A stretch of 52,968 nucleotides of DNA. Origin: Phoronis australis (taxonomy: Eukaryota > Animalia > Phoronida). The notes beneath the pieces are model-generated. The model was given only the letters and a program-made list of their open reading frames with translations. It did no database searches and was not told the DNA's origin. Both the position numbers and the translations under genes were made by a program. Of the stretch, positions 2,096-50,523 are shown piece by piece (within the stretch, counting starts at the first letter, position 1; each line of letters opens with the position of its first letter). The stretch is taken from the NCBI GenBank assembly GCA_002633005.1, contig NMRA01000112.1, forward strand, positions 893,202 through 946,169. The letters are read 5' to 3'.

Positions 2096-3288
2096 GTGAG
2101 TATTACAATGTTTGTTGGTGACTTTCCACCCGTGTCCAGGACCAGTTCGTTATACACGTATTACTGATACATGTATTTTCCTTCATAACAAAAGAGGACT
2201 TCAGTGAAGCAATTCATTCTTTATCAGGGTACACATGTCCCTAACTCCCTTTGTTTTTGTTTCATTCCCAGAACTTTTATGTTCACTAATGTTACTACAT
2301 GTACGTCTTATTGAGCCTTCTTTGAACAAAGTCTGTACAGAGGGTTACGAACCTTTGTAAGTGTTGGCGAAATTACAGGTTTACAAACCATGTGTAAAGT
2401 CTACCGTTCAGGAAATTCTTAAAATGCCGTCACAGTCACAGATTTATGGTATTTGCTAACTGATACAATATTTGAATACAAGTTCTATCTACAGTACCTA
2501 TCCATATACTGAATTCCAATCAGAAGATAGTTGGGGCTTAAAACATCATCATGCTCACCCAAACTTGAGTTATTGACGAATGAGCCAATGTCTCTTATTA
2601 CAAGCAATAACTACATGCACTATTTTCAAATTGATAATTTTAGAGTTCGCCATCCCCAATCAACGTTATACACTGTAGCCTTTTCCTCAGTCGCTGATTT
2701 ATTGACTGTTCTCGTTGGTAACTGGAATAATAAAGTCGCCCCCTTGCTGCACAATTTCAATTCGTCAACAACACTAAGATACTTACAGTATCAATGCAAA
2801 CCACTATCACTTTTCTTAATGACACAAGTTCCTGTTCTTGACAAACTGTATCTAAAGCTAACAATAGTCTTTACAGTCTAACTGGTGGGTCAGCACAATC
2901 GCCCATATGATCGACACATAAATTACCTTCACATCGGTTCTTTACATGTACATGTAGATTGGGGGCTAAGTAAAATAGAAGTGGCATGCGTCCCTGCAAT
3001 TAATGAGGAGTTCTATCAAATGCTTTTAGAAAAATCAATGCAAGTACAATAAAAGTGATGGCATTTTAAGATACATATTAATATTCTGAACCCTGAAGTA
3101 AATGCCTTTATAGAAATATCAGAATTGTTTTGTATCGTCTATAACCTCTAAGTTGTGTTTATAAGTCTGTACAAGTTGCGATATTTTCTTTTGACACAAG
3201 TTGTATTAATTATTCCACCAAGGGGGTTGCGATTTTAAATCTTCCGTTTTTAGATTGAACTCCGACTAGTTTCTGAGACCACATCTCG

Positions 3289-4828
3289 CCCGGGTGAGAA
3301 TTTGACACGTTTGACACGCTCTAAAAACGTGGAGTATTGGAACGACCTAAAAACGTGTCGAACGTGTAAAACGTGGCGTGTTAAACGTGTAAAATGTAGC
3401 GTGTCAAACGTGTCAAGAACGTGTCAAAAACGTGTAATTTTCGTTCCAATACTCCACGCGTGTCAAACGTGGCGATAAACGTGTAAAACGTGGCGATAGC
3501 GTGTCGAACGTGGTGTGCCAAAACGTGGCAAAACTTGGCACTTTTGACACGCTAGCGTGTCGAACGTGGCAATAAGCGTGTAAAACGTGGTGATAGCGTG
3601 TCGAATGTGGGTTGCCAAAACGTGGCAAAAACATGGCACTTTTGACACCCTAGCGTGTCAAACGTGGCGCTTTTGACACGCTAGCCTGTAATCTGTGTCA
3701 TTGCCATGGTAGCGACCCTACATGTAGCCTGAGGCCGTGTACAAGCCATAATGTTCTTGTTTATAGCAGCTCACCATCCACCATGAGAATCCATACTGAA
3801 AGCAAATGTATAAAGGGATTTCTTCTTTAGTCACTGTTTATAGTTACTGTTGATGTAAATAATCCAAAATGTGCTAATGATATAGAATCATTAAATGGAT
3901 AATGTAACTATCCAACTCTTACCACATACTGTTGTCACTAAATTTCATTACATCTAGAATAAAATTAACACAGAAATAAGAAAATGGTTCAACATACAAG
4001 TTTGAAGTGCTTAAGCTGCTATATATATGCATATAAGTCTAAGCTTTTGAGACAGGCCAGTTGCTTGAAGACAGTTTATGAAGTAAAGAACAGACGCACT
4101 TTGTAACATCTTTGAATTACCAAGAGAGATTCAACATTTATCATAGCATTGAGTTCATGTTGATTTTGCAGCTCAAACCTCTACACACAATGTCTTATCC
4201 TCATTCAAGCTGACACAAAATGTGAGTTGATCTAATAATAACAATTATGAATTGATATACTTCTGAAGATGAGAGGCGTTCCAACTTCATATATTAACTG
4301 CATAGTCAACAGTTTCTACTGACTCTTGTTTTCTGTTACAATCAAACTTTCCTGTAAAAAGAAGGACCATTTGCAAGAAAAGTTTATCAAGCTACTGTCA
4401 ATCAGAGTATACACATACTAAACTTCTGTTAGAGCTGCACCACACTCGAAAACCACACTTCATAAGTGCTCTCCTGACACGACTGCACTCTCTGACAGCT
4501 AAACCAACTCTAACTCAGTATTTGGATATTTGAATAGGCAGTGAAAACTTTTGTGGCAAACTCTTTGATGTTATTAAGGGAACATGTTTAATCATTCAAA
4601 TTGGGTGATTACCTCCTAGTGGCCTTTTCAGAACTGCCAAGCCTATTTAAATTGTATCTTTATTGAAGAGTTCTATCATATTTTACACGTTTGACACGCT
4701 AGCGTGTCATGTTTTTACACGTTTTACACGTTAACGTGGCAATTTTGCACGTATTACACGTTTTTTTACACGTTTGACACGTTTGACACGCTCAAAAGCG
4801 TGTCAAACGTGTAAAATTCTCACCCGGG
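3289..4828. mobile_element. Non-autonomous DNA transposon, CMC/EnSpm-like, with dense subterminal ACACGT/AAACGTG repeats
   Basis: About 30-bp TIR CCCGGGTGAGAATTT(G/T)ACACGTTTGACACGCT at both ends. Repeat arrays at 3300-3690 and 4680-4815. Flanks CG/TG are compatible with a deaminated 2-bp TSD. The superfamily is an inference. Confidence 0.75.
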
Positions 4829-5425
4829 TGATGCTGGGCATTTGAGCAAATTAGGTACTTTTTATACTGCTTCGTCTAACGATTTGTTTAAATTAATAAA
4901 GGCATGTGTCAGGAAAATCACGTAAACAGTAAAAATGCAAGCATTTTCCTATAAGCAGGGATATTGTCAGCCGACCATACTATTTCCTCATGTGAGTTAA
5001 CACTTGACCAAGATTCATTCGGGTACCTGAGATCAAAGAAGCATCAAGAGAAAGCTAATCAGACACATAAAATTTATCCACCTTAAACTTAATATTTTAT
5101 GTTTGTAGAAATCTGTTCGTAATACTTGTACATCCTTCCCCCAACAGTTAGTTTGTCAATAACAAACTTAAACAAATCGTTATTAATTATTCGTCGTTAT
5201 TTAGATTAACGCGCCGACCTATTGAAATACATCATTGAGAATAAACTACAATTTACTACGCACACTGTACATGTAACTGAAACGAAGCGAAAATGTTTGT
5301 CATTTAAAAATCTTTGTTGCAATGTTAACCTTGTACATGTATATCTCAACCCAGGTCCTCTACGACTTTTTTCTCGGTCAAATAAATACGTATCTTAATT
5401 CTTTTTAATAAAATAGAAATTTCAG

Positions 5426-5589: not shown

Positions 5590-6389
5590 GTAAATATGTC
5601 GTCAAATCTTTGCCAAACTGTCTGTCCAAATTTTTGTGTGCCCTTCAAAACATGTACATGCGTATGCTTTGAAACGGTTTTCTTTTTAACATTTATTCTT
5701 TAGGTGAATAAATTCAAATTGACAAAAAATCGCCACTCGCACATTTACAATACAGCATTTATTACTGACAGGCATACATTGTATGTACTGTACTGTACTG
5801 TACAAGGTGCTAAATCAACAGCAAACTCCCCGTCATGGTGGCCTTACACCTTGGATTTCCACTGAGTTGCATACAGCTGACTTAGTCGTGACACAAGTTA
5901 TTGTGATCACGCGCTTTGCTGGTAATACTGGCGATATCTCGAGATTTGCTTGATCTTGCGTTTCCGCGAAATTTCCGTGTCCACGGAACGCAGCCTAGTC
6001 TACTACAAATGTGTGTTAGGATATATTTTACGTAATTTAGCGTATTTCGTAACGTAAATGTACTATTTTGTGTGCAGTGTGAAAAACATTGTATTTGTCA
6101 GCGTTCCTGGACTTTTAAATGCAACATTTCCATATTGGTTATTGCTTGCAATCATTTCTTCGAACGCAATAAATCACCGATATTTGGGACGACTTCGACA
6201 GAAATCGGATGTTGTTAATTTCAAAAGTATTTTTTGTCGGAAAGCGGCTTTATAGCCTCTTTAAACTAAAGCACTTTGTTGTATGAAACGGAGTCTACCA
6301 AGATAACATGTATACATGATACATTTATCACCTTGCCGAAACAACATTCAATAAAGTTTGAACTCATTAACTCTCATGTTGACTTTCAG

Positions 6390-11010: not shown

Positions 11011-11185
11011 GACAAGTGATTAAAGGGACGTTAGAGATAACTGGCAATATGGACTGGACGGAGGAAATGAAAGATCGAAACTCAGATGCTTTTAAGAACG
11101 CCAGCGAAGCGATCAAGAATAACGTGAAAAAGTCTGTTGAGAACGAAAACACGAAATCATTGGAAGTAGAAGTAACCAAATTAAG
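11011..11185 (+). CDS. Host gene exon: SEA domain, N-terminal part
   Basis: TTTTCGTAG acceptor, AG|GTATT donor, 175 nt, phase 1 to 2. IKGTLEITGNMDWTEEMKDRNSDAFK fits the SEA pattern (beta strand, W/FxxxLxDxxSxxF). Confidence 0.88.
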
Positions 11186-11446
11186 GTATTAAAATAGCGT
11201 ACGCCTAGTATAGACTTGAAAACTCGGTTCTAAGGAAGATTTAGAATGAAGGCGTGTTTTTCCTCCATGCTCACTCTTCAAATCAGAAGGCATTTAGACA
11301 CACTGATAAGAGGCTTCGTGGTGGCAAAAGCTGTTCTGGACATCTTTCCATGTCCAGTCAATTCTTTGGTTCCATTTTGAAGAAAACATCACATCACATC
11401 ACAAGCAAAAGCTTAATTGACATCGTTTGTTAGACCGAACTACATA

Positions 11447-11879
11447 CTGGGTTTTTCCGTAGATAAGCCTGTGGACGAGTATCCGAAAGTGAAAAATTTC
11501 GGACGCGTTGGTAACACCAAATAAACACTCCTGCGTTTAATCGAAAAGGAGGACGTGTAAACGGAAAGTCAAAGGCTTCATGACTTTGACATTTCACTTA
11601 AAAGTGTGTTTTTAAATTTTATGTTAATAAACGCATAGTTCTCCAGCTCTGCGTTTGTTTAATACATGTATATGGTAAATACACCACAAAACTGAATTTG
11701 TTGCTAAAAGTTGACACTTAGTGGGCTTTTAAAAGGAAATTTTCCAAATAAATGCCACACTATCTGAGGACTTGACACCAGAAAGTGTTACACCAAATAA
11801 ACACCTTTGTTCGGTATAATTTTCCGAATAAACGCCCATGGGCATTTGATCGGGTGAGCTTATCTACAGAACACCCCGG
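11447..11879. mobile_element. Tc1/mariner-pogo type MITE
   Basis: TA flanks. TIRs CTGGGTTTTTCCGTAGATAAGC and GCTTATCTACAGAACACCCCGG. Internal AATAAAC(A/G)C repeats. Confidence 0.7.
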
Positions 11880-12220
11880 TATGCGATAGTTTGTGGTGTC
11901 CATATTTTCAAAGGAAAATCAACACTTCAAGTGAGTCGGGATTCATTTCTTCTAGCATCACGTGATGCCAAATATAATGGGTCGGTATCCCTCAGGGTCC
12001 AGTTGTTTTTTATCCACCATCATCTAATCCAAACCTGTTACGCGCCGATTTTAAAGAGAGTCGGACGCAGACCGGATCCACCTATCATCGCACAGCTGAA
12101 GCGCAAAGCAATTATGCATTCCCCCTCAAACATTTATTCGGCAATGAGTAAAAGACGTAAAGGGAGATGTGGCAATAATTAAAAACCAAGTGATCGTTTA
12201 TTTTGTTTTTCTTTCTCCAG

Positions 12221-12390
12221 TAAAGGATCTGTGGTGGCAGATTTTTACGTCAAGGTGAAACCGAAGGATGACGTTGAAGAAGGAGCCGCTCTGGCAGAAG
12301 TCAAAGTGGCACTTTGGTCCACCATAGAAACTGGACAAGTTGGCGAATTGGTTGTTTCTAGGTTCAATTCGTCTCTCAGGTTGCATGATG
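12221..12390 (+). CDS. Host gene exon: SEA domain, C-terminal part with G/SVV motif
   Basis: Strong pyrimidine tract plus CAG, G|GTATGT donor, 170 nt, phase 2 to 1. The splice junction reads VTKLSKGSVVADFYV. Confidence 0.88.
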
Positions 12391-12809
12391 GTATGTTACG
12401 TCCCCGTAGCCAGAGCATGGGTGGTGCATTATAGGGGGGGGGGGCAATAGCCTCACTTTTTTCAGTGCTCCACCGCCCATTCTGGCGAAGAGTATTACGT
12501 TCTAACCATCTTGTTATGCCTTAAAATAAATCCAAATTAGGAGTTGTTAACGTCTGAGGCTTGATGTGTTAATTAATGAGACATAATGGTTTTAGGACGT
12601 AGGAAAAGACTATCTGAAGTTATTAATTTTGACCAGTTCTAGAAAACAACACAATCCGTTGTGTTTTGTGATTTCATGGGTAACTGGTTATTTACCGTAA
12701 AGGGGTTATAGGATATTGGCATTTGATTAGCATTGTACAACATAATAACTTGTTAAATATTTGGAACGTAAAACCACTCCGTGCTCAGCTATGCGTACAA
12801 AGATATATA

Positions 12810-14208
12810 TAGATTATTACATGGCGAAGTCGTTATCCCCCGTTATCTAGAGCCCCAGTGGATTTTGGAGAATTATCGCCCGAGGGGCGTTAGCCCAGAG
12901 GGTAATAATTCTCCAAATCCACAAGGGCTCTAGCTAAGGGGGATTACGGCTGAGAACATGTAATAATCTATTTATACCACATACTAAACGAGAAACATTG
13001 CAATGAATCGATTTACCTTTTCTGACTCTCCACGGCTTTGTAACTACTTTCTATGTCAGAGGCTCGGGGTCGGAGGTCGTGACCTTTTAAGAAAAGCTGG
13101 GGTATTTTTGTCAAATAATGCTTTTACTAAAAACCAATTGAAAACTTAAATATAATAGAAATAAATTGAATCTATAAATTAAGGCTTACCAACTAATATA
13201 GCTTAAAACACGTTTTTTTTAAGCTAAGCTTCGACCGGGAAATTATCGTCTTCTAAAGTAGGTTACCACTGGTAACTGAATATAGTTCTCAAGTCAAAGA
13301 TCCTTTCCGCACAGTACCCGCATTCAAACTGGACATCGGTGATTTACAAATAAGAGGACATGAGAGAAAAATTTCACTGATTTAAGATATCATTTTTATG
13401 GAAATTATGTGTCTTATTCTTCGTAGCGTATAAGTACAGTACAATGCGGTTTGTTGAACTTAGGATCATTGCACGTGTTCATTTAAGTATTCTATTTTTA
13501 CTCTTGACGACGTCAGTCGTTGCATGGTGTAGTGGTAACGTCGGCGACCAGCAATTCCGGGGTCCCGGGTTCGACTCCGTCCTCGGTTTCCCGCCAAATT
13601 GTTATCTCCCTAATAAAACTATGTTTTAATTCAGTGAAATTTTTCCTCCTGTTCTCTCACTTGTAAATCACCGATCTCCAATTTGAATGCGGGTATCGTG
13701 TCGTCGGGATCCTTTGACTTGAGCATTATAGTCAGTTACTAGTGGTAGCCTACTTTAGCAGACGATATTTTCCCGGTCGAAGCTTAGCTTGATAAAATGT
13801 GTAGTAAGCTATAATAGTTGCTAAACTTTAATTTATAGATTCAATTTATTTCAATTTTGTTTAAATTTTCAATTGGTTTTGAGTAAAAACATTATTTGAC
13901 AAAAATAGCTCGGCTTTTCTTAAAAGATCACGACCTCCGACCGGGGCCTCTGACATAGAATGTAGTTACAAAGTCGAGGCGAGCCGAGAAAGGTAGATCG
14001 ATTCATTGCAATGTTTCTTGTTCAGTATGTGGTATAAATAGATTATTACATGTTCTCAGTCGTTATCCCCCTTATCTAGAGCCCTCGTGTATATTGGAGA
14101 ATTATCAACCTCGGGGCTAACGCCCCTCGGGGGATACACCTGTAGTTCTCCAAAATACCCTCAAGCTCTAGATAACGGGGGATAACGACTTCGCCATGTA
14201 ATAATCTA
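12810..14208. mobile_element. 1.4-kb foldback/palindromic element with about 600-bp inverted arms
   Basis: The outer 44 bp (TAGATTATTACATGGCGAAGTCGTTATCCCCCGTTATCTAGAGC) are a perfect inverted repeat. The arms stay alignable inward to about 13405 and 13605. Flanks are TA-rich. Confidence 0.9.
13518..13590 (+). ncRNA. tRNA-like sequence with Pol III A and B boxes (degenerate, not a canonical tRNA)
   Basis: A box TGGTGTAGTGGTA and B box GGTTCGACTCC with tRNA spacing and a GGGTC variable loop. Acceptor and anticodon stems pair poorly. Confidence 0.6.
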
Positions 14209-15438
14209 TATGTAGACCCAGGAATCCACTGATTTTGAAGTCAAGAAAAACAGTAACTCAACCATAGTACAGGACTCATAGGCAATCGTAAATTCGAATT
14301 CAGTAGCAGGCACTAGGAACTCGTATGGAATCAGGCAAGTCTGCATGGGTTGTCGGCTAATGCATGACAAAATCAAGACAATATAAACCTTAGTTGAGAC
14401 ACCAGACCTCAAAATCAATATAGTAGATCTATAGAGAACAAAACTGTGCAATCATAGATTTTAAAACCAAAATAGCAGATCTATGCTAACTGGACCAAAG
14501 CACATAGATCAGAAAAATGAAAATAACAGACCCATACCTGGATTTAGTACAGTAACAGTATGTCCTCGTTTAAATTTTAGAATGTATCACTTATGACCCC
14601 CTTCACTAACGCTAGGACCTCGCTTAAAGGCAATACTTTGCGGGAATACGTGAGATTTTGTCATGTATTTTTAAAGCGATCTCGTGACTTTGGTTAGATT
14701 ATACAATAGCTAGGTCCTAGCGTGCATGTAGGTTCTAGCGTTACTGAACTCACGCCTGGACATAAGTCAAGTAAAGACATTGATTAGTCATGTACCAGAC
14801 ATGTCTTGATCTCTTATAGTTTACAATGTTGACAAATGCGTTAGTATATTTGTTAATGCGACCTTAAACCAGTATTAAATCAAAACAACAACATTTGACT
14901 TAAACTGTTTGAGGTTATGGCATCAGTCTCAAATTGTTCTTCTATAAGAGGGGATTGCATGCGTCCAATGACCTTGAAACTGCTTTACTTCTACAGATCA
15001 AGCCTATAAATATCATGTCACGCCGTGTCTAGAAAAATCAAAGAGCCTCTTCCTGTCAGTTCTTTGTTAGCCCTGATATCACTTTTAAACTGTAAAAAAA
15101 CAGGATACACGAACGGTCGATTTTGTAACAGTAATTGGCCCTAAGCAAGGACTTGTTTTCTTAATAGAAAGCATGAGTTTAATGCCGCTTTAACAAAACG
15201 TTACATGCTCTAGAAATTTAGTCAGTAAACAAACTCTGATTAAAAATTAATCAAATAACAGGTCACACTGTGACTGGAAATTGTTTGATTTTTTTAAACA
15301 AACAACGATCTACCAGATCTTCAAAACAATGAAATTACCAGCAATTTTATTAAGAAACATTTTGGGGCCAATTCCATCACCGCGATTTAAAGCAAGATCT
15401 GTTTTGGAAGAGTAAATTATCACGTGGGATTATTGTAG

Positions 15439-15573
15439 ACTTGCAGACACCGTGGAGCACGTGGTCTTCTTGCTCTGAGGCTTGCGGTGGAGGGGCTCAA
15501 ACCAGGACTCGGTTGGATGAATCTGGGGACCCGAAGAAGGAAACCCAAAGTTGCAATGAAGAGACTTGTCCAG
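15439..15573 (+). CDS. Host gene exon: thrombospondin type-1 repeat 1
   Basis: TAG acceptor, CAG|GTAATT donor, 135 nt, phase 1-1. DLQTPWSTWSSCSEACGGGAQTRTRLDESGDPKKETQSCNEETCP. Confidence 0.92.
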
Positions 15574-23499: not shown

Positions 23500-24381
23500 G
23501 TGACCTAGATTCCAAACTTGGTTGACCTATTTTTTCAAAGCAGTGAATGCCACGTAGCAAATATTTTTTTCACAATTAATACATTTATTACAAAAGACAA
23601 ATACATATACAAATATACACACAACACAAAACAACACAACAACGTACAGAGCTGTGCATAAAAATAACGAGAAAGCATTTCATTGTCACTTCGAAGTTAA
23701 AAAGTACTGATGAAGTGTTGTTGATAATGTATCATAAACCAAGGAATATTCTTATGCCTCACTTGATTAATTCATACCTGATTCAATTGGAGCTTCCAGT
23801 CCACTGAAACTGGGTGTGTCTGTAAACAATGAAACGATTTTTTTCTCAGCCTCCTCCATGGGTTTGGGGCGAGAGCCTCCTCCCGTTTTCTTCACCTCTC
23901 TTTGCAGTTGGTTCTTTGAGGCTCTCGCCCCAGACACCATGTGCCTCCACTTTTCCTTTGTGTCATACGCTGTTCTGTTTGCTGTTCCCAGACTTGTGAT
24001 TTTGGAAGCTATATCTTTCCAAACAGAGTTCTTTTCGGCCTTCGTCACTTTCTGGCTGAACTTGCTGTTAATTACTTGCAAATTCGACTCGGCAAGTTCA
24101 GTCTCAAGGTTGATTTCGTGCTTTGTCCAATTACAAGATCTTTTCTTTTCAGCCATTTTGTCTGTGCCATGGTAACACGAATTATGGGTATTGCCTTATA
24201 TGGAATCCAATTTGGCTATCCATCGTATAACATAGATATCCGCCGGATAGTTATCCGAACCTTATCCAAGCTTTGTGCACCCAAATTTATACGCCGGGTA
24301 ACTATCCGGCGTATAAAACTTATCCGGCGTATAAGCTGTTATCCGCCGAATAGTAATACAGACTTTTATGCAACCAGGCCC
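23500..24381 (-). mobile_element. PIF/Harbinger transposon fragment (one end plus the Myb gene)
   Basis: Terminus GGGCCTGGTTGCATAAAA on the minus strand from 24381 and subterminal TATCCGGCG/CGCCGGATA repeats at 24237-24350. The other end and a transposase were not identified, so the left boundary is a guess. Confidence 0.65.
23778..24156 (-). CDS. Myb/SANT-like DNA-binding protein exon (NAIF1/MSANTD-like), PIF/Harbinger accessory ORF
   Basis: MAEKKRSCNWTKHE...KNSVWKDIASKITSLGTANRT...KEKW...KKTGGG is the characteristic Harbinger Myb/SANT signature. It ends at a CAG|GTATGA donor. Confidence 0.85.
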
Positions 24382-26190: not shown

Positions 26191-26897
26191 TTAATGTCAA
26201 GTTTGTTCCGTATAACGACTAGTTTATAATTGCTGCTATTTTTCATGCAATAAAAACATACTTTATCAGTTCAAATTTCTTCGCAATTCCGCAACGACAT
26301 ATAAACAGATTCTGCCGCTTAGCCCTCTGAAGCTCTGTGTAAATGCGCGTTAAAACTTAGTTCGCGCGATATGTATGACAGATACTTCACCTGAGTTTAA
26401 ATCGGCTTGCATGTCACGTATCGAGATATAATAACACATAGTTTTCATCGCGTGAGTTGTATAACATATATCTATCAAGAGGAATCTATCTGGACTCAAC
26501 AATCTGACTTCAAACGTGATGAGTGTTCACGAGTGTTTTAACGTTTTGCAGATGTTCCATTGTTTATAAGTGTTTTTAATACTGCGCATGCTCATATGTC
26601 ACGTCAGAGTAAGTGGAAATATAGGGTCGATATCGTTAAAGTAAAAGAAGGGCGTTGTTATTATTTTGTTAATCGTGTTTCATCGTAAATCGTTTTTAAT
26701 AATAAGAATTTAGTTGTGCACCATCGGCACAATGAGGGTGGTTACAAATTCAGCACGGCCTAGCAAAGAATTGTAGAAAGCGCAACACAACCTGTTGGGC
26801 ACTGAGGTACATGTATGCACCGGCTGCCATGTATGCGAAATCATTCTTTGAGGAAATATATACATGTTTGAATAAATAGCGAGTTTTGTAATTTCAG

Positions 26898-27376
26898 CTC
26901 ATACTCCTTTTGTCTTGCCTTCAGCTCCGCATAGCTTATTGAAAGCGGGATATTTGAAAAAGATACATGAATGGCTTCCTGGCAAGCACTTCCACTTAGA
27001 CTATAACTCTTCTGTGAAGGGAAGCTCTTTAGAGGACAGCTTCAAAGTAACAAACCCCAAACTACTAGTTGGAGTAGACGATAAAGACGGCAAGGTATTC
27101 GGTGTATATACCAAGAAGAACTTGTCTGAGGATATAGCAAGTGATCAGGATGCATTCATATTCCGTTTTGCCTCAGTGTGCAGCACAGATTACTGCCCAG
27201 GACAACGGTTTGTGGCACAAAGCAACTCAACCGAAACCAATGAGACTGCATCCAACTCATCGTCACTGCTTTTGGCAACGCTGATGCAATGTAAGAACGT
27301 TTCTGAATTTGGTATGCCTCAAAACATGAGCTGTTCCGGCCAATGGGCTGCTGGCGAAGCTTACCTAGTTGACTGA
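26898..27376 (+). CDS. Host gene terminal exon: TLDc-like domain
   Basis: TTTCAG acceptor in phase 1, open to TGA at 27374-27376. SLLK...KIHEWLPGKHFHLDYNSSVKGSS...KLLVGVDDKDGKVFGVYT...DQDAFIFRF follows the TLDc motif order (WLP; LLYxxSxDGxS; GxxFGxY; DxxxFLF). Linkage to the TSP1 exons is inferred from phase and proximity. Confidence 0.78.
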
Positions 27377-30152
27377 CGCGCTGTTTAAAAATGTATGTAA
27401 TTGCTTGTTGAAACAGTCGATTTCATAAAAGTGGTTTATCAAAACCAGGTTTAAGTCTCAAACCTCGTCTTTCAAAACCTGGTGTATTTTTGGCCTGGTT
27501 TTCATGGAATCTTGATCACATGGGTACAAATGACCAACAGTGATAGAATATAGTGCAGACTTTTACTGGTGAATATGTTATCAACAAATGAATAGAAAGA
27601 GGTCTGAAGATTTTCTCAGATGACGAAAATGTTTCCTCAAAGAATTGATTAGAGAAAAAACCAATACTGTAGATATCAAGAAAATTGGTACCAAATTAAT
27701 TCAACGTAAGCAAAAGACCTAGAGAGATACTGGTCTAGCCTGGACTGGCTGCACAATTCCTGCAATCCGAGAAATGCCCCCAATAAATACATGTACACCA
27801 CTTCACCCATCGAAAGTTCAAAACAGAGAATACGCACACAGACACAGGTGATGAAACATTGTATGTTGCCACTATCCAAAACGGGTAACGCCCATATAGA
27901 CAATTTTAGGGCTAAAATTGATGTGATTTTATGATATTTTCTGCCTCTTGCACTTTTTAAAGCGAATTATGTCTTATTCATACGTACATGTAATTCTTCT
28001 GAATTGAGGGTTCCATACTATATTAAACGGAGTCGAATCAAAATTTAACATTTCCTTTTGAAGGAAAAGCTGTATCACGCAAACGGTGTCGTCTGCAGTA
28101 CAAAAGAAAAAAACAATCAAAATCGAACGGCGCAAAGAAAATGTCAATCGCTAAATTTGGTCAACTTGAAACAGATTTTGACACTTGTTGATCTCCAATA
28201 AGAGACAAAATGTCATCTCGTAAAAGTACTGGGCACATAGGATTCAAACATTCGAGGAACTTCAGAATTACATCCACCAAAGTGATTAGCAATTTCTGAC
28301 AGCACCTACGGCTGGTGCTACATGTACATTGACACAGACTTTCTTAAAACTTTGTGAGAGCTTGGTCTACCCCTAGATATGCACTAAAACAGTTTTGGTT
28401 ATTCTGACACAAACCTAGTTTTCATTTTATGCTGATCTTGGCAAAACGTTTTTTTGACAATTATTTCAGTAAAAAGCTGCCAAATTTGAAAGACAGCTGA
28501 GAGATTATACAAATAATGAATAACTATAATTTTTATCTGAATGTAACTGACCTTAAAGTCCAGAAACACGTTTGATATTTAAGATCAACATTTCAGTACT
28601 ACTTAAAAGTAGTGGATTTTCATCAATTCAAAATTGCGAAGTTTTCAACGTACTGATTTAGAACAGTTTCAATGAGAAAGTGAAGACAATTATATTTTGG
28701 CTACAGAAGGTTGTGCTCTTACCAAAAGAGGTCATTAGTAAGCGGAAATGTTTGCAAGTTTCAAGTAAATTTTTCAGGGAAGTTAAAAGTAGACTGAAAG
28801 GTGCATTACGGTCGTTGGTGTCGTTTGAGATGGGTACGAATTGACTGGTTAAGTTTCAGTAAATTCTGCGGCGGGTCATGTAGAATATTTTTAGGTCATA
28901 GGTGCTCTTAGAAATTGCTACTTAAACTTTTTTTCAACACATTCAAAAGAACCTGCGTGGCAAAGAAAGCAAGCTGGGAGAACTTTGGGTAGGAACAATT
29001 TGTTTTGGAATTTTCGAGAGTTAGCCATGAAGAGAATGATACATGTACAGTACGTTGACACTCTCATCTATGGAGTTAGAGCAACTCGACCGGTTCACTA
29101 ATTAAACTCCACCGTTGTATTCAAACAGACCTTCCAGTGTCTGCTGCTGATTATGTTGGGCAATCAGGCGCGAAACTGACCATCATGTAATCAACGAGGG
29201 AGACAATAGTATTTTTCAAATTTTCATTTTGATTTTTTTTTGATAGCATATTCCAACTCTTCCAGGAGTTGAAAATTGAGGAAAGTCGAGAATCATCGAA
29301 CAAATCCGGGCATTGTGGTCCTTATTACAAATGATAACATTATGGACTTAATGAAGTTCACAGACAGCTTGACTAACAGACTTCGTCACCCCCACTTAAT
29401 TGATATACTTCGGTTTGATTGACGGATCTAGGATGTCACAAGGGGCAGCAATAAATTAGGAAACGGTGTCTGTGCATTGCTCTATTAACGGCATCCCCAT
29501 GGGATTTTTTAGTAGTTATTTAATTTGCTATTAAGCGGTGAGTGTACATGTATTCCCTTTCTCAACATTTTTGTACTCTAAATGTTGCTACTACGAGAAA
29601 TAGATCGCTGTAGTAAAAATTAACATACAATTCTTATCTAAAAAGTCACACTGATTCAATGGAAACCCAACTTGACTTGATGGTCGAATTTCAATTTTCC
29701 ATGCATTGTAACAGAACGTGCGAGATTTATGTGACTGTGCACGATCTAAAGTACATGTAAGTGTTTTAAAGTCTTGAATCATGGTTGTTCAAATCCCACA
29801 CAATTGCCTCCATTGTAGCACAGGTGTCAGTCAGAGCCCGAGGTTCATGCATTCACATATGTTACTTTTAGCAACTTAAATAAGAGCAACGCGGACCGTT
29901 GAAATGCGCCCACTACTGCACCTCAAATGTTTTACTTCTAGGGAGTATCATGATAATGGCCATTAGATGACTCCGACGACCTTGAACCCATTCAAAATGG
30001 AAAAATTCGACGTTTCTCAAATTAGTAGCAAAATATTTATGAAAATTCGCTAATAAATGTAAGTCCAAAGATACAAAAGCAAACGTGAACAAAAATTGCC
30101 ATTAGGAACCACACCAGTAGTCGAATCCATCCACATGTTGTCGATAGGAATA

Positions 30153-31541
30153 CAGTTCATCTTGCTCCCGAAGCTTATGTGGCCACTGTTAATCTACGAC
30201 GGCACGTCCTCTTCAGCTGAGGAAATGGAAAGAGCAGCGAGCCGCTTCATTCGAAGGTGGCTTGGTCTACCTGCATCATTCACCAACGTCGGGCTGTACT
30301 ACAAGTCATCGAAACTTGTTGCGAGCCAGCATCACTCTGCAGAATACATCTGACCAGGCCATCAGTGGTTGCATCACCCAGTCACGTACCGGCAGTATGT
30401 GGTCCACCACGTCGGCAATCAGCGAAGCAGAAAGCCGGCTGAAACACAAGCAATTAATTGGAACTTCTTGCCAGGGTAGGCAAGGACTGGGCTAGAAGAC
30501 CGGGAATCCAGCAAGGAAGAGACTTAAAAACCCAGACAGAGACAGAATAATCAGAGAAGTTAGATTGTCAGAGAACGAAGGAAGGCATGCCCGAGCAGTT
30601 CAGATGGGTCAGCAGGGGGCGTGGACGAAGTGGGACAAAGTCTTGCAAAGGGAAGTAAAGTGGGCGGATTTGTGGAAGATTTCACCTTTGAAAGCAAAGT
30701 TTCTCATCAGATCTGTTTATGATATACTGCCTACTCCCAGCAACCTTGCTATTTGGGGTCTTACTGACAACCCGAGCTGTATTCAGTGTGGACGCAGTTG
30801 TTCTTTAGAACACATTCTGTCATCTTGCATCGCGTCTTTGGCAACAGGAAGTTACACCTACCGACATAACCAGGTACTGAAAGTTTTCGCAAGGGTGTTG
30901 GTGGACGAAGTCGAGAAGCCACCAGAACAAGTGGCGACGAGGCAAGTAAGGGGAAGACACCAACACAAAAAGGCATCCTTCATACAACCAACGACTGGAA
31001 ATTGTGGGTTGATCTTGCCGGTCACCAGTCATCCTTCCCACAGCACATTGTCCAGACTACACAGCGCCCTGACTTAGTTCTTTATTCGGACAGTTCCCAC
31101 CAGATCATCCTGATCGAGCTCACAATTCCATGGGAGAGTAGGGTAGAAAAAGCACATAAGCGGAAGAACATGAAATATACTGATCAGAGGAGTGACTGCC
31201 ACGTTAACGGGTGGAGGTGTTGGAGTTTTTCTGTGGAGGTTGGTTGCCGTGGTTTTCCGGCCAGCTCAGTTAATGCTATGGCAAGGTCTCTGGGCGTCTC
31301 TGCGAGAGGAAAGAAGGTTCCTCTACGCGATGTGGCCACCGAAGCTGAACAGGCATCTTGTTGGATTTGAATGAAGCACCAACAGCAATACCATCAACAA
31401 CCTTCAGGCAGAGCCTGATCAACTCTGTTGTCCCGCCTACTAGAGATGGTCTTGGTTTAGGGACGAAACCATTAAGGACAGTAGGAGACCAACTGAAGAT
31501 GACGGTTGAGCACAGTTCCATCAAGTGTTTAAAGTAAGTTC
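30153..31541 (+). mobile_element. 5'-truncated RLE non-LTR retrotransposon (HERO/NeSL-like), copy A
   Basis: CCHC knuckle CIQCGRSCSLEHILSSC and restriction-like endonuclease RPDLVL...IELTIPWE...KRKNMKY...VEVGCRGF. Stops and internal deletions present. Aligns to 33762-35212. Confidence 0.93.
31415..31515 (+). ncRNA. Candidate hammerhead-like ribozyme with non-canonical pseudoknotted topology in the retrotransposon 3' UTR
   Basis: AUGG-UC (31446-31451) pairs with GAAA-CCAU (31465-31472). UUGGUUU (31452-31458) pairs with AGACCAA (31486-31492), which directly precedes CUGAAGA (31493-31499). Further helices GUCCC/GGGAC, CCUACU/AGUAGG and UCAAC/GUUGA. Activity is untested. Confidence 0.55.
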
Positions 31542-34500
31542 TTGTTATCGGCAAAGCCGTGACTTCAATGAATAGGATGGATGACACTTGGAAAGACAAG
31601 AGATATCGGGAGAGACTGATGACAGCATCGGGTTCAGCTCGGATTACATGTAGCTGTCCGTCTGAAGTGTTCGCGAGGACACACCCATTCATATTGCTAC
31701 GTCCAAATTATCAGAAAGATAACCCCAGAACTCCCCGAGAGGGAGGATGCAAGAAGAGTCCAACGACAGACCTCAAACGGCAACGACCGGACCGAATAGG
31801 TCTGCGATTACGAACAGCGATTTAGCATTAAGAACCCGTGTGTGTGGAAAGATTCTGAAGAATGTAAGAGGGTTGAATATCCACCAAGGAAAGATGAAGT
31901 GCTTACGTCAGGTTGCAAGGCAACGCTTGGGCGCCACGTCCAGTGAGACGGGGGAGGGATTAAGCCAGGTCTCAAACCACAGTGCAGAAGACCTCCCAGC
32001 TACGCAACAGCTGGAAGCATTAGTAGTAGAATCTGAAGTATTTCAGAATCCAGTTCCAGCCAATTCAGCAGGTCCACCAGATACTGCAAAGAAGGATCGA
32101 ATCAAGTGGCCATCAGCAGCTGATAAGAAGGCGTGGTCAGCCTTAGACGATGATCTGGATAGCATCTTACGTGTCACTCTTCGAGGTCTAGGAGAGACAA
32201 AGATTGAGGCTATGACTCGGATCGTTTACCAAGTCAGTGTGGACCGCTTTGGAACAGTAGAGAAAAGAAAGGAAACATCAAACCCATGAGGACCAAACAG
32301 ACGACAACGGGAAATACATGTAGCGACTATCTGCAGAGAGCTTAGAGAACTCTGTCGCCTGTGGAAGAGTGCAGCTGAGCACGTAAAAGCAGGAATTACT
32401 CACCTGACATCTGAGGTTCGCAAGCGACTATTGTCCCTCCGCAAAGCAGAACGAGGTGCACAAAATAGGAAAAAACGGTCAAGGCAGAGGGAGAAATTCA
32501 TTAGGCACCCCTATCAGTATGCTTCAAGGCTTTTAGGCATGAGCAAAAGCGGAGCACTTACCTGAACCAGGGCAGACTTAGAGGATCACCTTGCCAAAAT
32601 TCACAGCGACGAGTTGAAAGATACTCCCCTTGGCGACTTTCCAGGTCTAGAGGCTGAAGATTTACCAAACGAAGGTTTTGATCTGGGGGACATTAAGAAG
32701 TCAGAAGTGGATAGCACTGTGAAGAAAGCCCGATCGGGGTCAGCCCCTGGTCCAAGTAGAATTTCCTACAAGGTCTATAAGATGTGTCCCAAGTTGAGAG
32801 AAAGACTCTGGAAGCTCTTTAAGATTCTCTGGAGGAAGAGCGTAGTTCCAGCACAGTGGGGGCGAGCTGAAGGATTTTATGTTCCGAAAGAAGAAGGCTC
32901 GAAGCAGATTAGCCAGTTTCGACCAATTTCACTGCTCAGCGTGGAGGGAAAGATCTACTTAGCAATCCTATCCGGAAGAATGACAGATTTCATGATCAAG
33001 AACAAGTATATTGACACATCTTCACAGAAAGGGGCGGGCTACCAGGCTTTTGTGGATGTCTGGAACATAATTCTATCATAAGTGAACGCATACACCGAGC
33101 GAAGAAGGGCAAGAAAAAGAATCTGCCTTTGGTGTGGCTCGACATGGCAAATGCGTACTGTTCGGTACACATGTGTTAGTTCATCGTGCCATGGACATCT
33201 ACCACATTCCTAAGAAATTCAAGAGTATAGTGAAGTCATACTATAGCTCGTGTGTTATGCGTTTCACGGTCGGAAGCTTCACTACGAAGTGGCAAAACCT
33301 TGAAAAAGAAATTATGACGGGCTGCACCATTTCAGTCATCCTGTTTATCTTGGCAATGAATGTCCTGCAGAAGAGAGCCCAATCTGAGCGGAGAGGTCCC
33401 AAGCCAGATGAAGGCAGACAGCCGTCAGGTAGAGCTTTTGTTGACGACATTACAATTGTGACAGAGTCACCAGTGGGTGCCAGAACAATTCTCCGTTGCC
33501 TAGAATAGCTCAATAAATGGGCCCGTATGTCATTCAAGGCAAAGAAGTCCAGATTACTAATTATCAACAGAGGCGTGTTGCTCAAGAGACAGACGTTTTC
33601 GATAGCAGGTTGCAGAGTTCCAACAATAAGTGAACAACCAGTCGAGTACTTTGGCAAGTACTAAGATAGCAGCCTACGAGACACATCCCGTGTCAAGAAT
33701 GTGAAAGCCTAGGTATAGCTTGAGAACACGGCATACCCGTAAGATTCAAGCTTTGGTACTACCAGTTCCTCTTGCTCCCGAAGCTTATGTGGCCACTGTT
33801 AATCTAAGACGTCACGTCCTCTCCAGCTGAGGAAATGGAAAGAACAGCGAGCCGGTTCATTCGAAGGTGGCTTGGTCTACCTGCATCATCTAGCAACGTC
33901 GGGCTGCACTGCAAGTCATCGAAACTTGTTCTACCGGTCTCATCTGTGGTGGAAGAATACAAAGTTACCAAAGTGCGAGCCAGTATCACTCTGCAGAATA
34001 CATGTGACCAGGCCATCAGTGGTTGCATCACCCAGTCACGTACCCGCAGTAAGTGGTCCACCACGTCGGCAATCAGCGAAGCAGAAAGCCGGCTGAGGCA
34101 CAAGCAATTAAAGGAACTGCTTGCCAGGGTAGGCAAGGACTGGGCTAGAAGACCGGGAATCCAGCAAGGAAGAGACTTAAAAACCCAGACAGAGACAGAA
34201 TAATCAGAGAAGTTAGATTATCAGAGAACGAAGGAAGGTATGCCCGAGCAGTTCAGATGGGTGAGCAGGGGGTGTGGACGAAGTGGGACAAAGTCTTGCA
34301 AAGGGAAATAATGTGGGCGGATTTGTGGAAGATGTCGCCTTTGAAAGCAAATTTTCTCATCAGATCTGTTTATGATGTACTGCCTACTCCCAGCAACCTT
34401 GCTATTTGGGGTCTTACTAAAAACCCGTGCTGTATTCAGTGTGGACGCAGATGTTATTTAGAACACATTCTGTCATCTTGCAGCGCGTCTTTGGAATCAG

Positions 34501-35212
34501 GAAAGTAAACCTACCGACACAACCATGTACTGAAAGTTTTCGCAAGGGTGTTGGACGACGAAGTCAAGAGTAAACCAAAGTCGAGAAGCCACCGGATCGA
34601 ATTTATCAGTTTCAGAAGAAGTGGCGACGAGGCAAGTAAGGGGAAGACACCAGCGCAAAAAGGCATCCTTCACACAGCCAACGACCGGAAATTGTGGGTT
34701 GATCTTGCCGGTCACCAGTCATCCTTCCCACAGCACATTGTCCAGACTACCCAGCGCCTTGACTTGGTTCTTTATTCGGACAGTTCCCACAAGATCATCA
34801 TGATCGTGCTCACCAGGTAGGGTAGAAGAGGCACGAGCGGAAGAACCTGAAATATACTGATCTGAGGACTGACTGCCACGTTAACGGGTGGAGGTGTTGG
34901 AGTTTGTCTGTGGAGGTTGGTTGCCGTGGTTTTCCGGCCAGCTCGGTTACTGCTATTGCAAGGTCTCTGGGCGTCTCTGCGACAGGAAAGAAGGTTGTTG
35001 AACGTGATGTGACCACCGAAGCTGAACAGGCATCTTGTTGGATTTGGAAGAAGCACCAACAACAATACCATCAACAACCGTCAGGCAGAGCCTGATCAAC
35101 TCTGTTGTCCCGCCTACTAGAGATGGTTTAGGGACGAAACCATTAAGGACAGTAAGATACCAACTGAAGATGACGGTTGAGCACAGTTCCATCAAATATT
35201 TAAAGTAAGTTC
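31542..35212 (+). mobile_element. Near full-length but inactivated RLE non-LTR retrotransposon (HERO/NeSL-like), copy B
   Basis: N-terminal zinc-finger remnant CGKILKNVRGLNIHQGKMKC. RT motifs SAPGP, QFRPISLL, WLDMANAY, MTGCTISVILF, AFVDD. CCHC knuckle and RLE domain. Multiple stops and frameshifts; ancestral stop at 35093-35095. Confidence 0.95.
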
Positions 35213-36655
35213 AGTGGCAAAATTTCGAAAACATCTTGCAGGGGTTTAGAACATACAGACATAAATGCAAAAATGTTATCTACCACAGTAGTTGGACCCG
35301 TTTAGAAATTCACGTCGGTCTTGTTCTTGTCACTAGAAACACAATTGCCAATTTTCGTAATCCTAGCCGTGGTTTCGCAGATACAGAAACAAACAAAAAT
35401 TCAGACTAGAAAATGATTAAAATGGCCATTTATTGGTGTAGAATACGTCAAATCCATCACAAAAAAGAAAGCTGTTGTCGTTTTCATTGGAAAAATTTGC
35501 CCATTTCCATGAAAAAGCATCAAAGAACTCTGAAGTTACAGATGACAACGTAGAAAAATATAATATCCACTAGGGAGCACTGCTGTTGCTGGAATAATCT
35601 GAGACTGGCAGTCATCTATTGGAAACTCCATGGGAACACATCTGCTGCATTTCAAATACAGTAGATCTTGCAAAGGGCAAAGGAGATACAAAAATTAAAA
35701 TTTCGACTGGGGCAGAGTATTTGAACAAGTCCGAAAAACAACGTCATCTTCGGTCTGCTGATCAGGAACGCATCTCCAAATCTTAATAATAACCTCCAAG
35801 CAGTTTAAAATGGCACTAATATGCGCAGAATACGTCAAACTAGCGCGAAAATGAAAAATCATCTTCTTAATAGAATGTTATTTGCAAAATCTCATGATCA
35901 TAAAAACAGCCGCGAATCAATCCAAAAAGCGGGAACCTGTCGCCACTGTACTAGAAACCTAATTGGCAAGGAGATTCAAAGATACAGAGGACAACGAAAA
36001 AATGCCACTAGGGAGTGGGGGAGGGAGCGCAGCGGTAGTCATATCCGTCCAAATGACGTCATTGTCCGACAGAGGTCAACCTGATAACTAAAATTGCCTT
36101 GCCACAAGGGAAGCAAGTCTGATCCGTCAAAAGGTCGTCGTGGTCCGTTGTACACTGGCTAACTTTATCCTCCAGAGCGTTTAGGAGATGCAGTCGAGAT
36201 ACAGCCGTGGGCGCAAAAAACATACAAAACTACCACTAGGAGGCGCCACAGTACTCGAAGTCATAGAAAAATCATGGTCAGCCGTCCTCTCCTCTTCACT
36301 GGAAGAGCATATAAATGTACATGTATGCCAACTGTTTACTTATCACCCTTAGATTGGTTTCGTTGATAGCGGGAAAGACGCCAAGAACAAACTCAACAAC
36401 AGTAAGGATGGCACTATGTGGTGTAAAATACCTCAATCAATCTGAAAACGAGAAGATATCGTCAGTTCACTAACTGATGCCTATCTGCCAATTTTTATGA
36501 AAATCCGTTGAGGACCTCCGAAGGTAGAGAGGAAAACGTCAACAACTAAAATTGCCACTGGGGGGGGCACACCGGTTGTAGGATCTGTCCTAAAATTCGC
36601 TCACGCGCCCTATTCATAAAAACAACGTATCTGCAAAATTTGATGACCATGCATG

Positions 36656-37382
36656 GAAGACTTTTGGAGATACATGTAAAGCAGCGGATGCCGGACGGAC
36701 GCTGAGCGGAAGGGAAGGACGGTATAATGCCTCCAAAATAATTGTGGGTTTAAAACTAATTATTTACGTTAATTTGGACCCGGTGACAATTTGTGCAACA
36801 ACTGTCGCATTCGTTGTCATATATCATTGTATTCTTAACATCAGTTTTTTTATTTATGTATTCGTATATAATCATTGTATATAGACTTCTTTGTATTTTT
36901 TTACCCAGATCAAACGCCTGGTCCGCGTGTATTCATTGTATTCGACAACCTTAAATACAACATTTTGAAAACGAAAACCTTTTCTTTACGAATACGCATA
37001 TATATGTATCCGCTGTNATCGAAGACTTTTGGAGATACATGTAAAGCAGCGGATGCCGGACGGAGGCTGAGCGGAAGGGAAGGACGGTATAATGCCTCCA
37101 AAATAATTGTGGGTTTAAAACTAATTATTTACGTTAATTTGGACCCGGTGACAATTTGTGCAACAACTGTCGCATTCGTTGTCATATATCATTGTATTCT
37201 TAACATCAGTTTTTTTTATTCATGTATTCGTATATAATCATTGTATATAGACTTCTTTGTATTTTTTTACCCAGATCTAACGCCTGGTCTGCGTGTATTC
37301 ATTGTGTTCGACAACCTTAAATACAACATTTTGAAAACGAAAACCTTTTCTTTACGAATACGCATATATATGTATCCGCTGT
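36656..37382 (+). repeat. Near-identical about 360-bp tandem duplication around a single N (probable assembly artefact)
   Basis: 36656-37016 versus 37021-37382 differ at only a few positions, and the junction is the N at 37017. Confidence 0.85.
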
Positions 37383-41544: not shown

Positions 41545-42055
41545 GGTTTGTCGAAACCCTGTTTGTGTAAATTTTTGAGTTTTGTGTTTGATGTGGACGG
41601 CTGAAGTGAAGCACCTGTGGAATTCCTTGTTCCGAGTGTGATACCGTGTAGTGTTATACATGTATACTGTAGCTGAGAACACTTTGAATTGCTCATGGTT
41701 TGCTGAACCCTGGTTTTGTGTAAATTTATTCAGTTTTGCGTTTGATATGGACGGCTGTGAAGCACACATGAAATTTTTAGTCCTGAGTGTCATACCGTGC
41801 GGTATATATTTATAGTGTATTGGGTACGATCAGAAGGTGAGGACGTCTGTGAGTTATACCACAGGCATCCTCAGCCTCTGAGTCTGACCGTCCCAAATAC
41901 ACTATAATACTAAAAGGTCGGACACTCGGCTTATGAGAAGATTTTTGTGTGAAGAAAAGCACTCATGGAATTCATAGTTCCGAGTGTCATGCCTTGTGGT
42001 ATTATATATAGTGTATTGAGGATGATCAGAAGTTGGGGATGCCTGTGATTTACAA
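41545..42055 (+). repeat. Degenerate tandem repeat, about three units
   Basis: Recurring AACCCTG-TTTGTGTAAATTT, GTTTGAT-TGGACGGCTG, AAGCAC and GAGTGT-AT-CC-TG blocks. Confidence 0.7.
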
Positions 42056-43659
42056 CACGGGCCGAGGAATTTCCCGATGACCGATAAGTTAACCATATGA
42101 TAAACCTATAGGTAGGACACTAAAAGTTTGCCAAGCCTCGCCTGCCAGCTTCTACTGCTCTAAATCCAAGTGGTACCTGTGTGCACCTCCCTCAGACTGG
42201 TATTACATAAACGGGAATTCCTGACCACTTTTGAACCTGTACCCTTTGGGTGCCCCTGATGATAAAAAGTGTGTCTTTTTCAAAAATTTGTGTCCGGCAG
42301 ACATGGTGTTATAAAATGGTAACATATGAAATAAACCTCAAGGGCATTGAAAATTAGAACAGTCATGCTGACGTAAAAGCTTTAAACAGGAAATGGTAAT
42401 TTACGATCAGATATTGGAAAATGTTAACGGCCTCTTCACTCATTTTAATGAAATCTGCAACATTACCCGTGAGTTGTTCGGCTGTAAGTTGACTTGCATT
42501 TTTTGGAATAGTTCGTTTTAAAAGATGCGCCTGGGGGTAGCACTACTGCCCTTTTGTATGCACTAATAGCACAAATGCGCATCCAGGAATATGCCTGCAT
42601 AAACATCAGAAACCTTGTTTCCTTGATTTCTTTGAAGTGTTCATGTTGTGAGTGGTGAATTGGCTACGGAATATCTGATGCCTGACCATAGTTTTAGTTA
42701 CTGAAAATTAGCTATCGGCAACTGCCAGTTTTCGCAGTAATCCTAAGTTAGTGATTCTTCCGTTTTAAACAAGGTCATTTTATAAACCCAGAGTTTAAAT
42801 ACATTCAAAGCGAAATTAAATTATGTAAGCCACACTCAACTGGCATTCGTGGGCGGGCTAAAACAGAGCTTCGGAATTGCTTCGCCACTGTCTATGAAAA
42901 ATCTGGATTTGTAAGTCTGCCATGAACGTCAAAAAATAACCTTGATGGGCTTCAACATGTTTGTTTGCAAATCACCACACGAAGGCAGTTTAATATGATA
43001 AAGTGAAGAAAGGTGTTCAAAAATTTGTTTGGTGTTGATTTCGTTGAATTCCATGCACATTTGAGTAGAAAATATTGAGCAAACCAATTGTTTAACTCCA
43101 ATCATTATGTTTTATCATGTAACTCAGTGAGTGACCTTATTGGTGATCGAGGAACAGATAAACTAAAGTGTCTGGTTTATATTTGCCAGTTTCGCGTCAG
43201 CATGACTATTTGACTTTTTAAAGTATGATAACAAAAAATATTTCTTGCTAAGCAATTGAAAATTGCTCCTGAGCATCAGTTTTCATGAAACACCTGCTAG
43301 TATAGAAAAATTGAGAACATTGCGACGCTGATACACAGAACCTAATCGTGTTTGCCTTGAGGATTCCTCTTTGATTGAATTTGTTGTTTATTTGCGTAAT
43401 AAGTTAAGTGCAAAGTTTACATTGCTGATCTAGGAATGAAGTGAAAATTTTCTTCTGTAACCCGTTTCTCCCATGGAAAGTTGTTTGAATTCGACCTCCG
43501 AAACTGTGCTGTGGGGCTTTAAAGACGGTTATGAACTATATGCCCATTTACATGTTCTGCATCTCATTTTACTTGCTTCACAACGAAACTTCAAATGCCC
43601 GCAAAATCAAAATCCAAAACAATGGCGGGCAATTGGTGATCTTATGAAACGTAGTCTAC

Positions 43660-46571: not shown

Positions 46572-46799
46572 TAAAAATAATTTTGGCTAAAATGACATTG
46601 TACATTACAATAAGAAATCAGTTCCAAGAAATGTGGTATTTTATTGCTATGAGCACATGGACCGGTCTTCCACCTTTCTCCCCTTTTCTTCGTTTCGGAC
46701 TAGTCCACAAATTCTTTGTGCACGACCACACACTGTGTTTTTGACGAATCGCGTAACGGGTGACATGTACTGAATCGGTAGGGTCGCACTGCGCCGATG

Positions 46800-50371: not shown

Positions 50372-50523
50372 TATGAGCACATGGACCGGTCTTCCACCTT
50401 TCTCCCCTTTTCTTCGTTTCGGACTAGTCCACAAATTCTTTGTGCACGACCACACACTGTGTTTTTGACGAATCGCGTAACGGGTGACATGTACTGAATC
50501 GGTAGGGTCGCACTGCGCCGATG
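50372..50523 (+). repeat. Identical copy of 46648-46799, each copy abutting an N (probable mis-scaffolding)
   Basis: One copy ends at the gap at 46800 and the other starts right after the N at 50371. Confidence 0.85.

Follow-up and report, generated by a model that had tools for sequence, protein, structure and literature searches.

In the open-licence literature, to which our comparison was confined, the mobile elements found to carry a tRNA-type promoter are retroelements, namely SINEs, Cassandra, Helenus, and Ajax, joined by one capture of a headless SINE in MER6, a MITE that took up a SINE and spread it (PMC6887750). No DNA transposon with a retained tRNA-type promoter was found in that literature. 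The element described here lies in a 52,968-nucleotide stretch of the Phoronis australis genome (hereafter the window) and carries A and B boxes between long inverted arms; the comparisons that follow draw on parts of the papers cited. MER6/MER6A, a Luchetti-type composite MITE, resembles it as a non-autonomous DNA transposon whose ends carry TA and whose copies all contain a captured SINE piece. However, what MER6 retained is the body of the SINE, its tRNA head being lost, whereas the present element keeps the tRNA-derived boxes, and the 24-bp TIRs of MER6 contrast with arms of 600 bp that hold nested hairpins (PMC6887750). Helenus/TRIMp3 is likewise non-autonomous and bears tRNA-derived A and B boxes in a mostly non-functional cloverleaf, the boxes being thought to stem from a SINE insertion. 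Yet Helenus is an LTR retroelement in need of its promoter, with direct LTRs, a PBS, a PPT, and, in animals, 4-bp TSDs, whereas the arms here are inverted and no PBS or PPT is seen; its box A is mostly TRGCY, against TGGTG here (PMC10886601). The 11-base A-box motif of our element is absent from the supplement text of that paper that was searched, in which line breaks could hide a match.

Non-autonomous Cryptons offer a different set of parallels, in that they are high-copy and non-coding, lack a variable TSD, and end in a short AT-rich core (PMC3212892, PMC5753468); the standard of comparison was a direct core of 4-6 bp at both ends with no true TSD. Among animal Cryptons non-autonomous elements outnumber autonomous ones, and an oomycete Crypton, CryptonF-2_PI, has TIRs of 602 bp (PMC3212892). 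Salmon Crypton ends have also been aligned with Eulor5/6 in this literature. On the other hand, animal Cryptons are reported without terminal repeats in the consulted part of PMC3212892, unlike our element, and none of the Cryptons described in the consulted parts of PMC3212892 and PMC5753468 has a tRNA-like centre. Finally, the A-to-I-edited palindromic Harbinger repeats of Xenopus are a case of a self-folding DNA repeat that can form its own dsRNA within transcripts, as this element could (PMC5625713).

The element consists of two inverted arms around a unique spacer (Table 1), in good agreement with the arms of about 600 bp and the spacer of about 200 bp described in an earlier note made from the sequence alone. 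Its ends, which lie within TA-alternating sequence, are placed to within 6 bp (12804-12810 and 14208-14214). Over 606 aligned columns the arms are 85.8% complementary; a global alignment shows 72 substitutions and 14 gap columns. The longest exact inverted match is the outermost part of the arm (47 bp, 12807-12853), which is the identical 44-bp terminus of the earlier note, counted there from 12810. That note did not mention a further level of folding: the outer 170 bp or so of each arm is a palindrome on its own, so that the terminal motif occurs four times per element. No open reading frame of at least 90 amino acids lies inside the element, in line with its description as non-coding, and terminal inverted repeats combined with a lack of coding capacity are what is expected of a foldback or MITE-type DNA transposon. 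The RNA fold predicted for the element has an energy of -875.6 kcal/mol; microRNA matches to the terminal hairpin in Rfam fell far under the gathering scores. A BLAST search for a second copy within the window returned self matches and fragments of at most 27 bp.

Table 1. Features of the element and its surroundings (positions in the window)
Feature	Position	Strand	Basis or remark
Predicted exons of host SEA/TSP1-domain gene	11011-11185, 12221-12390, 15439-15573	+	AG/GT ends
Predicted host intron, 3,048 bp	12391..15438	+	between exons 12221-12390 and 15439-15573
Whole foldback element	12804..14214	.	inverted-repeat alignment; contig loose ends
Left arm	12804..13399	+	complementary to right arm
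Left terminal hairpin, nested in arm	12804..12976	.	78% self-complementary; terminal motif again, inverted, at 12957-12976
Unique spacer, 213 bp	13400..13612	.	found in many family copies
Candidate captured unit, TG...CA, 189 bp	13408..13596	+	between 5-bp near-direct repeats; weak, chance possible
tRNA-derived unit, exact tRNA spacing, broken stems	13518..13590	+	mapping on standard tRNA numbering
A box	13525..13537	+	promoter-motif scan and tRNA numbering
B box	13568..13578	+	promoter-motif scan and tRNA numbering
Right arm	13613..14214	-	complementary to left arm
Candidate Pol III stops (T4 13624-13627, T5 13640-13644)	13624..13644	+	both within right arm
Right terminal hairpin	14033..14214	.	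72% self-complementary over 14038-14209

Contigs from four public runs, representing at most three samples, were aligned to positions 12501-13700 at 80% likeness; two of the runs, X1 and X2, may share their source with the window. A run that may be of RNA (X5) consists of contigs and was left aside in matters of expression. In X1, from which 4008 contigs aligned, depth rises from 41 in the flank to 27,000-683,000 in every bin within the element (flank depth in X2, 4.6). The tRNA-like part lies at about 1013 times (X1) and 1452 times (X2) the depth of the flank, the remaining spacer at 2282 and 3342 times, and the arms, of which each copy counts twice, at 5979 and 8391 times, summed contig depth being a guide to the order of magnitude and not a copy number. 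Contigs break off at sharp common ends and continue into unlike flanks, with loose ends piling up at 12802, 12803, and 12807; those that end with unlike flanks at 12802-12807 number 95 and 40 in X1 and 34, 76, and 45 in X2. Such dispersed copies with shared ends are a further mark of a DNA transposon, and the element is one aged copy of an abundant, high-copy non-coding repeat. The tRNA-like unit is family-wide, as the earlier note had anticipated. Its depth is nevertheless below that of the rest of the spacer in both runs, which suggests that some copies may lack the unit or differ in it by more than 20%. In a run under another species label (X6), whose share was small and which may contain DNA of the same animal, contigs of low depth cover 13324-13485 and 13474-13612. 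The host intron also holds a distinct short repeat (12600-12690), whose depth in X1 rises to about 2000 against 41 in the flank.

We consider the element to be probably a non-autonomous foldback DNA transposon with hairpin ends, dependent on a Crypton-type recombinase and carrying a captured A/B-box passenger. It would move as DNA, since its central promoter faces seven runs of at least four T, two of them those at 13624 and 13640, on the way from the B box to the right end of the element, and no RNA copy of the whole could arise from it. The enzyme would be supplied in trans, a tyrosine recombinase of the Crypton type that acts at the short TA-rich core of the element ends. At both ends there is a TA-alternating core, TA stands immediately outside TAG (12810) and CTA (14208) and again at 12806/14212, and most family contigs match several bases past TAG. 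With eight choices of boundary, a search for target duplications yielded 2-bp repeats only, TA among them, and no direct repeat of 3-10 bp. Academ elements, which have TAG termini and TSDs of 3-4 bp or 9-10 bp, were rejected as a class for want of any 3-10 bp repeat, although the copy is old and decay is possible. A tyrosine recombinase at a short TA-rich core has, in our judgement, a somewhat better than even chance of being the enzyme, against a smaller though substantial one for a DDE enzyme that duplicates TA. This choice of class rests on the structure of the ends and on the palindromic Crypton families of Repbase, which we take to be a parallel for that structure.

The ends of a second, sister family found in metagenome contigs bear on the same choice. 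At least 119 metagenome stretches match a hairpin pattern derived from the terminal motif, with 26 true palindromes among the matches listed; an ATAGA end just outside the pattern is present in 12 of these 26 and in none of the 93 others listed. Members (L123, L129, L132, L138, L157, L163, L185, and others) share with our element a terminal hairpin of about 160 bp bounded by the same TATTACATG motif and an outer ATAGA. They differ from it in having a single hairpin end and a length of 0.5-0.65 kb (three loci read out), in lacking a strict pair of A and B boxes in the 26 loci tested, and in showing no BLAST similarity past the motif. The alignment of their inner flanks to the element was reached by 167 of 5,000 shuffles, so that likeness beyond the pattern is short. 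The sister family is abundant, occurring as a solo 160-bp palindrome or at one end of an element of 0.5-0.65 kb, and its loci look, on our reading, like animal repeats. Among the matches listed, TAWA precedes the sister ends in 11 of 14, and the one solo hairpin with both ends present (L132) is flanked by TAAA at one end and by TATA at the other, which leaves no strict TA duplication. A short recombination core accounts for these ends better than strict duplication of TA would, and they thus favour the Crypton-type recombinase.

Other observations weaken the Crypton assignment. No autonomous partner or recombinase gene with the same ends was found in metagenome, viral, and prokaryote contigs, which hold little animal DNA, and PMC3212892, in the part consulted, describes animal Cryptons without terminal repeats. 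The longer elements with the same termini that the earlier note had envisaged as encoding a recombinase or transposase did not turn up in these collections. The family-specific terminal pattern had no match in metagenome contigs and none in prokaryote genome contigs. The 15-base terminal motif occurs in at least 120 viral-contig stretches, where BLAST matches to the element extend over no more than 21-30 bases; the hairpin pattern has eight matches in viral contigs, none palindromic, and two viral matches to the sister motif were set aside, both falling within coding sequence. A 744-aa frame next to hairpins in locus L158 belongs to no Pfam family and was rejected as unrelated.

Among the alternatives, the closest rival keeps the same history for the passenger and assigns the element, as a foldback MITE with termini TAG...CTA, to a DDE family of the Tc1/mariner type that duplicates TA, which we regard as possible but rather unlikely. 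It gains from the TA directly outside both termini and repeated at 12806/14212, and from the long TIRs usual in DDE-type MITEs, of which MER6 is one case. It is at odds with the sister ends, preceded by TAAA as often as by TATA, with the different flanks at the two ends of the sister solo hairpin, and with the family likeness that continues past TAG. Moreover, mariner MITEs do not typically have hairpins nested in their termini.

At the centre of the spacer, the A and B boxes stand at tRNA spacing, as in a type 2 Pol III promoter and as the earlier note had read them. On standard tRNA numbering T8, A14, G18, G19, A21, G53, T54, T55, C56, A58, and C61 are all in place without a gap. The strict A-plus-B match is the only one in the window. 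With the consensus motif as search pattern, shuffling gives an expectation of 0.00025 matches for the spacer (20,000 shuffles), 0.0013 for the whole element (3,000), and 0.01 for the window (100). General likeness to ten prokaryotic or phage tRNAs reached a best value attained by none of 1,000 shuffles, a result that does not name the source tRNA; the A box is presumably Gly- or Gln-like. The stems, by contrast with the boxes, are broken: the acceptor stem has 4 of 7 pairs, three of them G-T, the anticodon stem 3 of 5, and the T stem 2 of 5, and position 33 is C and not T. The D stem is complete in this copy (4 of 4 pairs, two G-T), yet the family-majority letter at 13539 (97%) disrupts its G12-C23 pair, which counts against selection on a cloverleaf. 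The unit is, to judge from its letters, a tRNA-derived promoter-like sequence and not a tRNA gene. The T-runs that had been noticed near 13624 and 13640 are real but belong to the right arm and not to the spacer loop, and T5 at 13640 mirrors an A5 in the left arm. A Pol III RNA ending at them would measure about 110-130 nt. Directly upstream of the A box, positions 13508-13515, when given the family-majority letter at 13508 (99%), form a perfect 8-base CRE/ATF palindrome, which may be due to chance; ATF sites occur upstream of some Pol III genes.

The loss of the tRNA stems and the further pair broken in the family majority favour the view of the unit as a passenger. The A and B boxes would have been captured once, by the ancestor of the family, from a SINE head or a tRNA-bearing LTR. 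They would since have multiplied as a passenger that contributes nothing to the spread of the element, even if some copies could still bind TFIIIC or yield a Pol III RNA of 110-130 nt. Alternatively, the promoter may be the part under selection, with the short RNA or the recruitment of TFIIIC benefiting the host or the element (through open chromatin or insulation from silencing), an option that we hold to be improbable though worth stating. Boxes and spacing are exact although this copy departs from the family majority by at least 3.7%, and none of the 11 spacer differences among the 40 best-supported of 189 difference rows falls within a box; however, no private change in 24 box letters has P ~0.29 at a rate of 5% and is uninformative for those 40 rows. 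T-runs stand at a usable distance, but they are part of the arm. A diverged X6 contig departs from the fit at 13548, with 18 of the next 30 letters alike, and keeps the B-box register with 8 of 9 letters (P ~0.04, hypergeometric, from a hand count made post hoc); this hint of selection comes from a single contig that may be another tRNA-like repeat. DNA transposons move without an RNA intermediate, and the element, if it is one of them, would not need the transcript. For Helenus, Kojima infers selection from the conservation of its boxes (PMC10886601, in the part consulted).

The capture of the unit in the ancestor of the family, as we prefer to see it, has also to be weighed against the insertion of an independent SINE or Helenus-type solo LTR into this one copy. 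What speaks for such an insertion is a TG...CA stretch that nearly fills the spacer and is bracketed by 5-bp near-direct repeats with one mismatch (13403-13407 and 13597-13601); a scan for stretches bracketed in this way gave three candidates, a level that chance can give. The stretch would be in keeping with a SINE or solo LTR inserted long ago in the loop of a simple palindrome, and the likeness to a Helenus solo LTR consists of TG...CA and the chance-level repeat, the sequence being by eye unlike the animal LTRs in the consulted part of PMC10886601. With a free abundant SINE one would expect extra depth over the unit and a pile of loose ends at its borders. Neither sign is present: the unit, at roughly 1000 times flank depth, shows no excess over the adjoining spacer, contigs run on from arm into spacer, and the 24 loose-end rows listed, of 837, include no pile at the borders of the unit. 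The unit is thus not a local SINE insertion, and the insertion into a single copy is largely refuted and very unlikely. By the same observations, together with the lack of a tail, SINE2 was rejected as a class. Nor did any free SINE or LTR turn up from which the unit could derive. The earlier statement that the unit has no SINE tail or TSD stands as regards the tail (no poly-A or simple-repeat tail) and any TSD of at least 7 bp closely bracketing it, and is qualified by the 5-bp near-direct repeat at the spacer edges. Similarly, its description as integral to the element is right in that it is family-wide, but the ancestral capture of a SINE head or solo LTR explains this equally well.

A non-autonomous retroelement of DIRS-like type, with inverted ends and transcription from this Pol III promoter, is scarcely credible. 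Inverted, non-identical ends without a TSD are features of DIRS-type elements (PMC13465315, in the part consulted), but the promoter is central, the seven T-runs in the right arm make a full-length RNA impossible, and the spacer holds no separate internal complementary region. Weakest of all, a functional tRNA gene carried by the element is refuted for this copy in spite of the invariant box letters, by the 2 of 5 pairs in the T stem, the missing U33, 0 genes in ARAGORN, the lack of any Rfam tRNA match to either 1.6 kb or 171 bp of sequence even with E allowed to reach 10, and a fold no better than that of shuffles (z-score -0.06). The small-RNA gene of its own that the earlier note gave the element is not supported in that form, the cloverleaf being broken.

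Differences between the arms date the copy. Among the 40 best-supported of 189 difference rows, a choice that favours high majority shares, 24 fall in the left arm, and in 22 of these 24 the family-majority letter is the one that this copy has in its right arm, with a majority share of at least 97% at 20 of the 22 positions. At least 20 of the 72 arm substitutions are hence private to the left arm of this copy, which places it at least 3.7% from the family majority. The copy is therefore not young, and many arm differences are later than its insertion, contrary to the earlier suggestion that they pre-date it. A part of that suggestion may hold: in two left-arm rows the share is close to one half (46% and 61%), and these may go back to an old difference between arms or subfamilies, while the 47 bp of exact match at the terminus are more than the private rate alone predicts (P ~0.03), so that some older interior asymmetry or conversion is plausible besides the private mutations.

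The element sits in a predicted intron of a gene with SEA and TSP1 domains, a placement read from the sequence that agrees with the host pre-mRNA setting proposed before. The three predicted exons have no stop in one common frame; the first matches SEA (E=1.2e-5, just under the curated cut-off) and the last TSP_1 (E=1.2e-7), and no domain family was found in the middle one. The same intron holds small nested inverted repeats at 14600-14748, and the intron that splits the SEA domain contains a MITE-like stretch with 26-bp inverted ends at 11443-11883. Upstream of the SEA exon, a segment of several hundred bases occurs in three diverged direct copies (65-76%) between 6896 and 10635, with no Pfam family in the frames tested. 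A fragment of a TLDc domain at 26876-27373 on the forward strand (E 5.9e-4) may be a further exon, downstream, of the SEA/TSP1 gene or may belong to a gene of its own. Elsewhere in the window, an element of 1.5 kb (3286-4831), whose 35-bp inverted ends agree at 94% and which has many sub-terminal repeats, is likely another non-autonomous DNA transposon. At 23770-24195 on the reverse strand lies a Myb/SANT-like domain (PF13873, E 8.5e-12), of a kind that often occurs in Harbinger elements. A broken retrotransposon with reverse transcriptase-like and restriction-like endonuclease-like frames (30063-35212), which its motifs would place in the non-LTR class, has an internal duplication of 1.4 kb at 87%. 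There are also diverged tandem units with short hairpins (41590-42070) and two possible assembly artefacts, an exact 152-bp duplicate adjoining an N gap (46648-46799 and 50372-50523) and a 365-bp tandem pair at 98% (36653-37382).

The host pre-mRNA would fold the arms into a long double-stranded stem, and a high-copy repeat of this kind can place long dsRNA stems in introns. It will also mimic tRNA or SINE heads in annotation. The terminal inverted repeat with a hairpin of its own offers a route by which the abundant, poorly classified palindromic repeats of animals could be linked with their enzyme. More tentatively, and with the odds against it, the family may be the DNA-transposon counterpart of SINEs and TRIMp3: recombinase-moved, hairpin-ended, and with a tRNA-type Pol III promoter kept by selection. 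If the boxes are indeed under selection, this would be a DNA transposon family that uses a Pol III promoter, and it would set about a thousand TFIIIC/Pol III sites across an animal genome, each at the tip of a 600-bp foldback.
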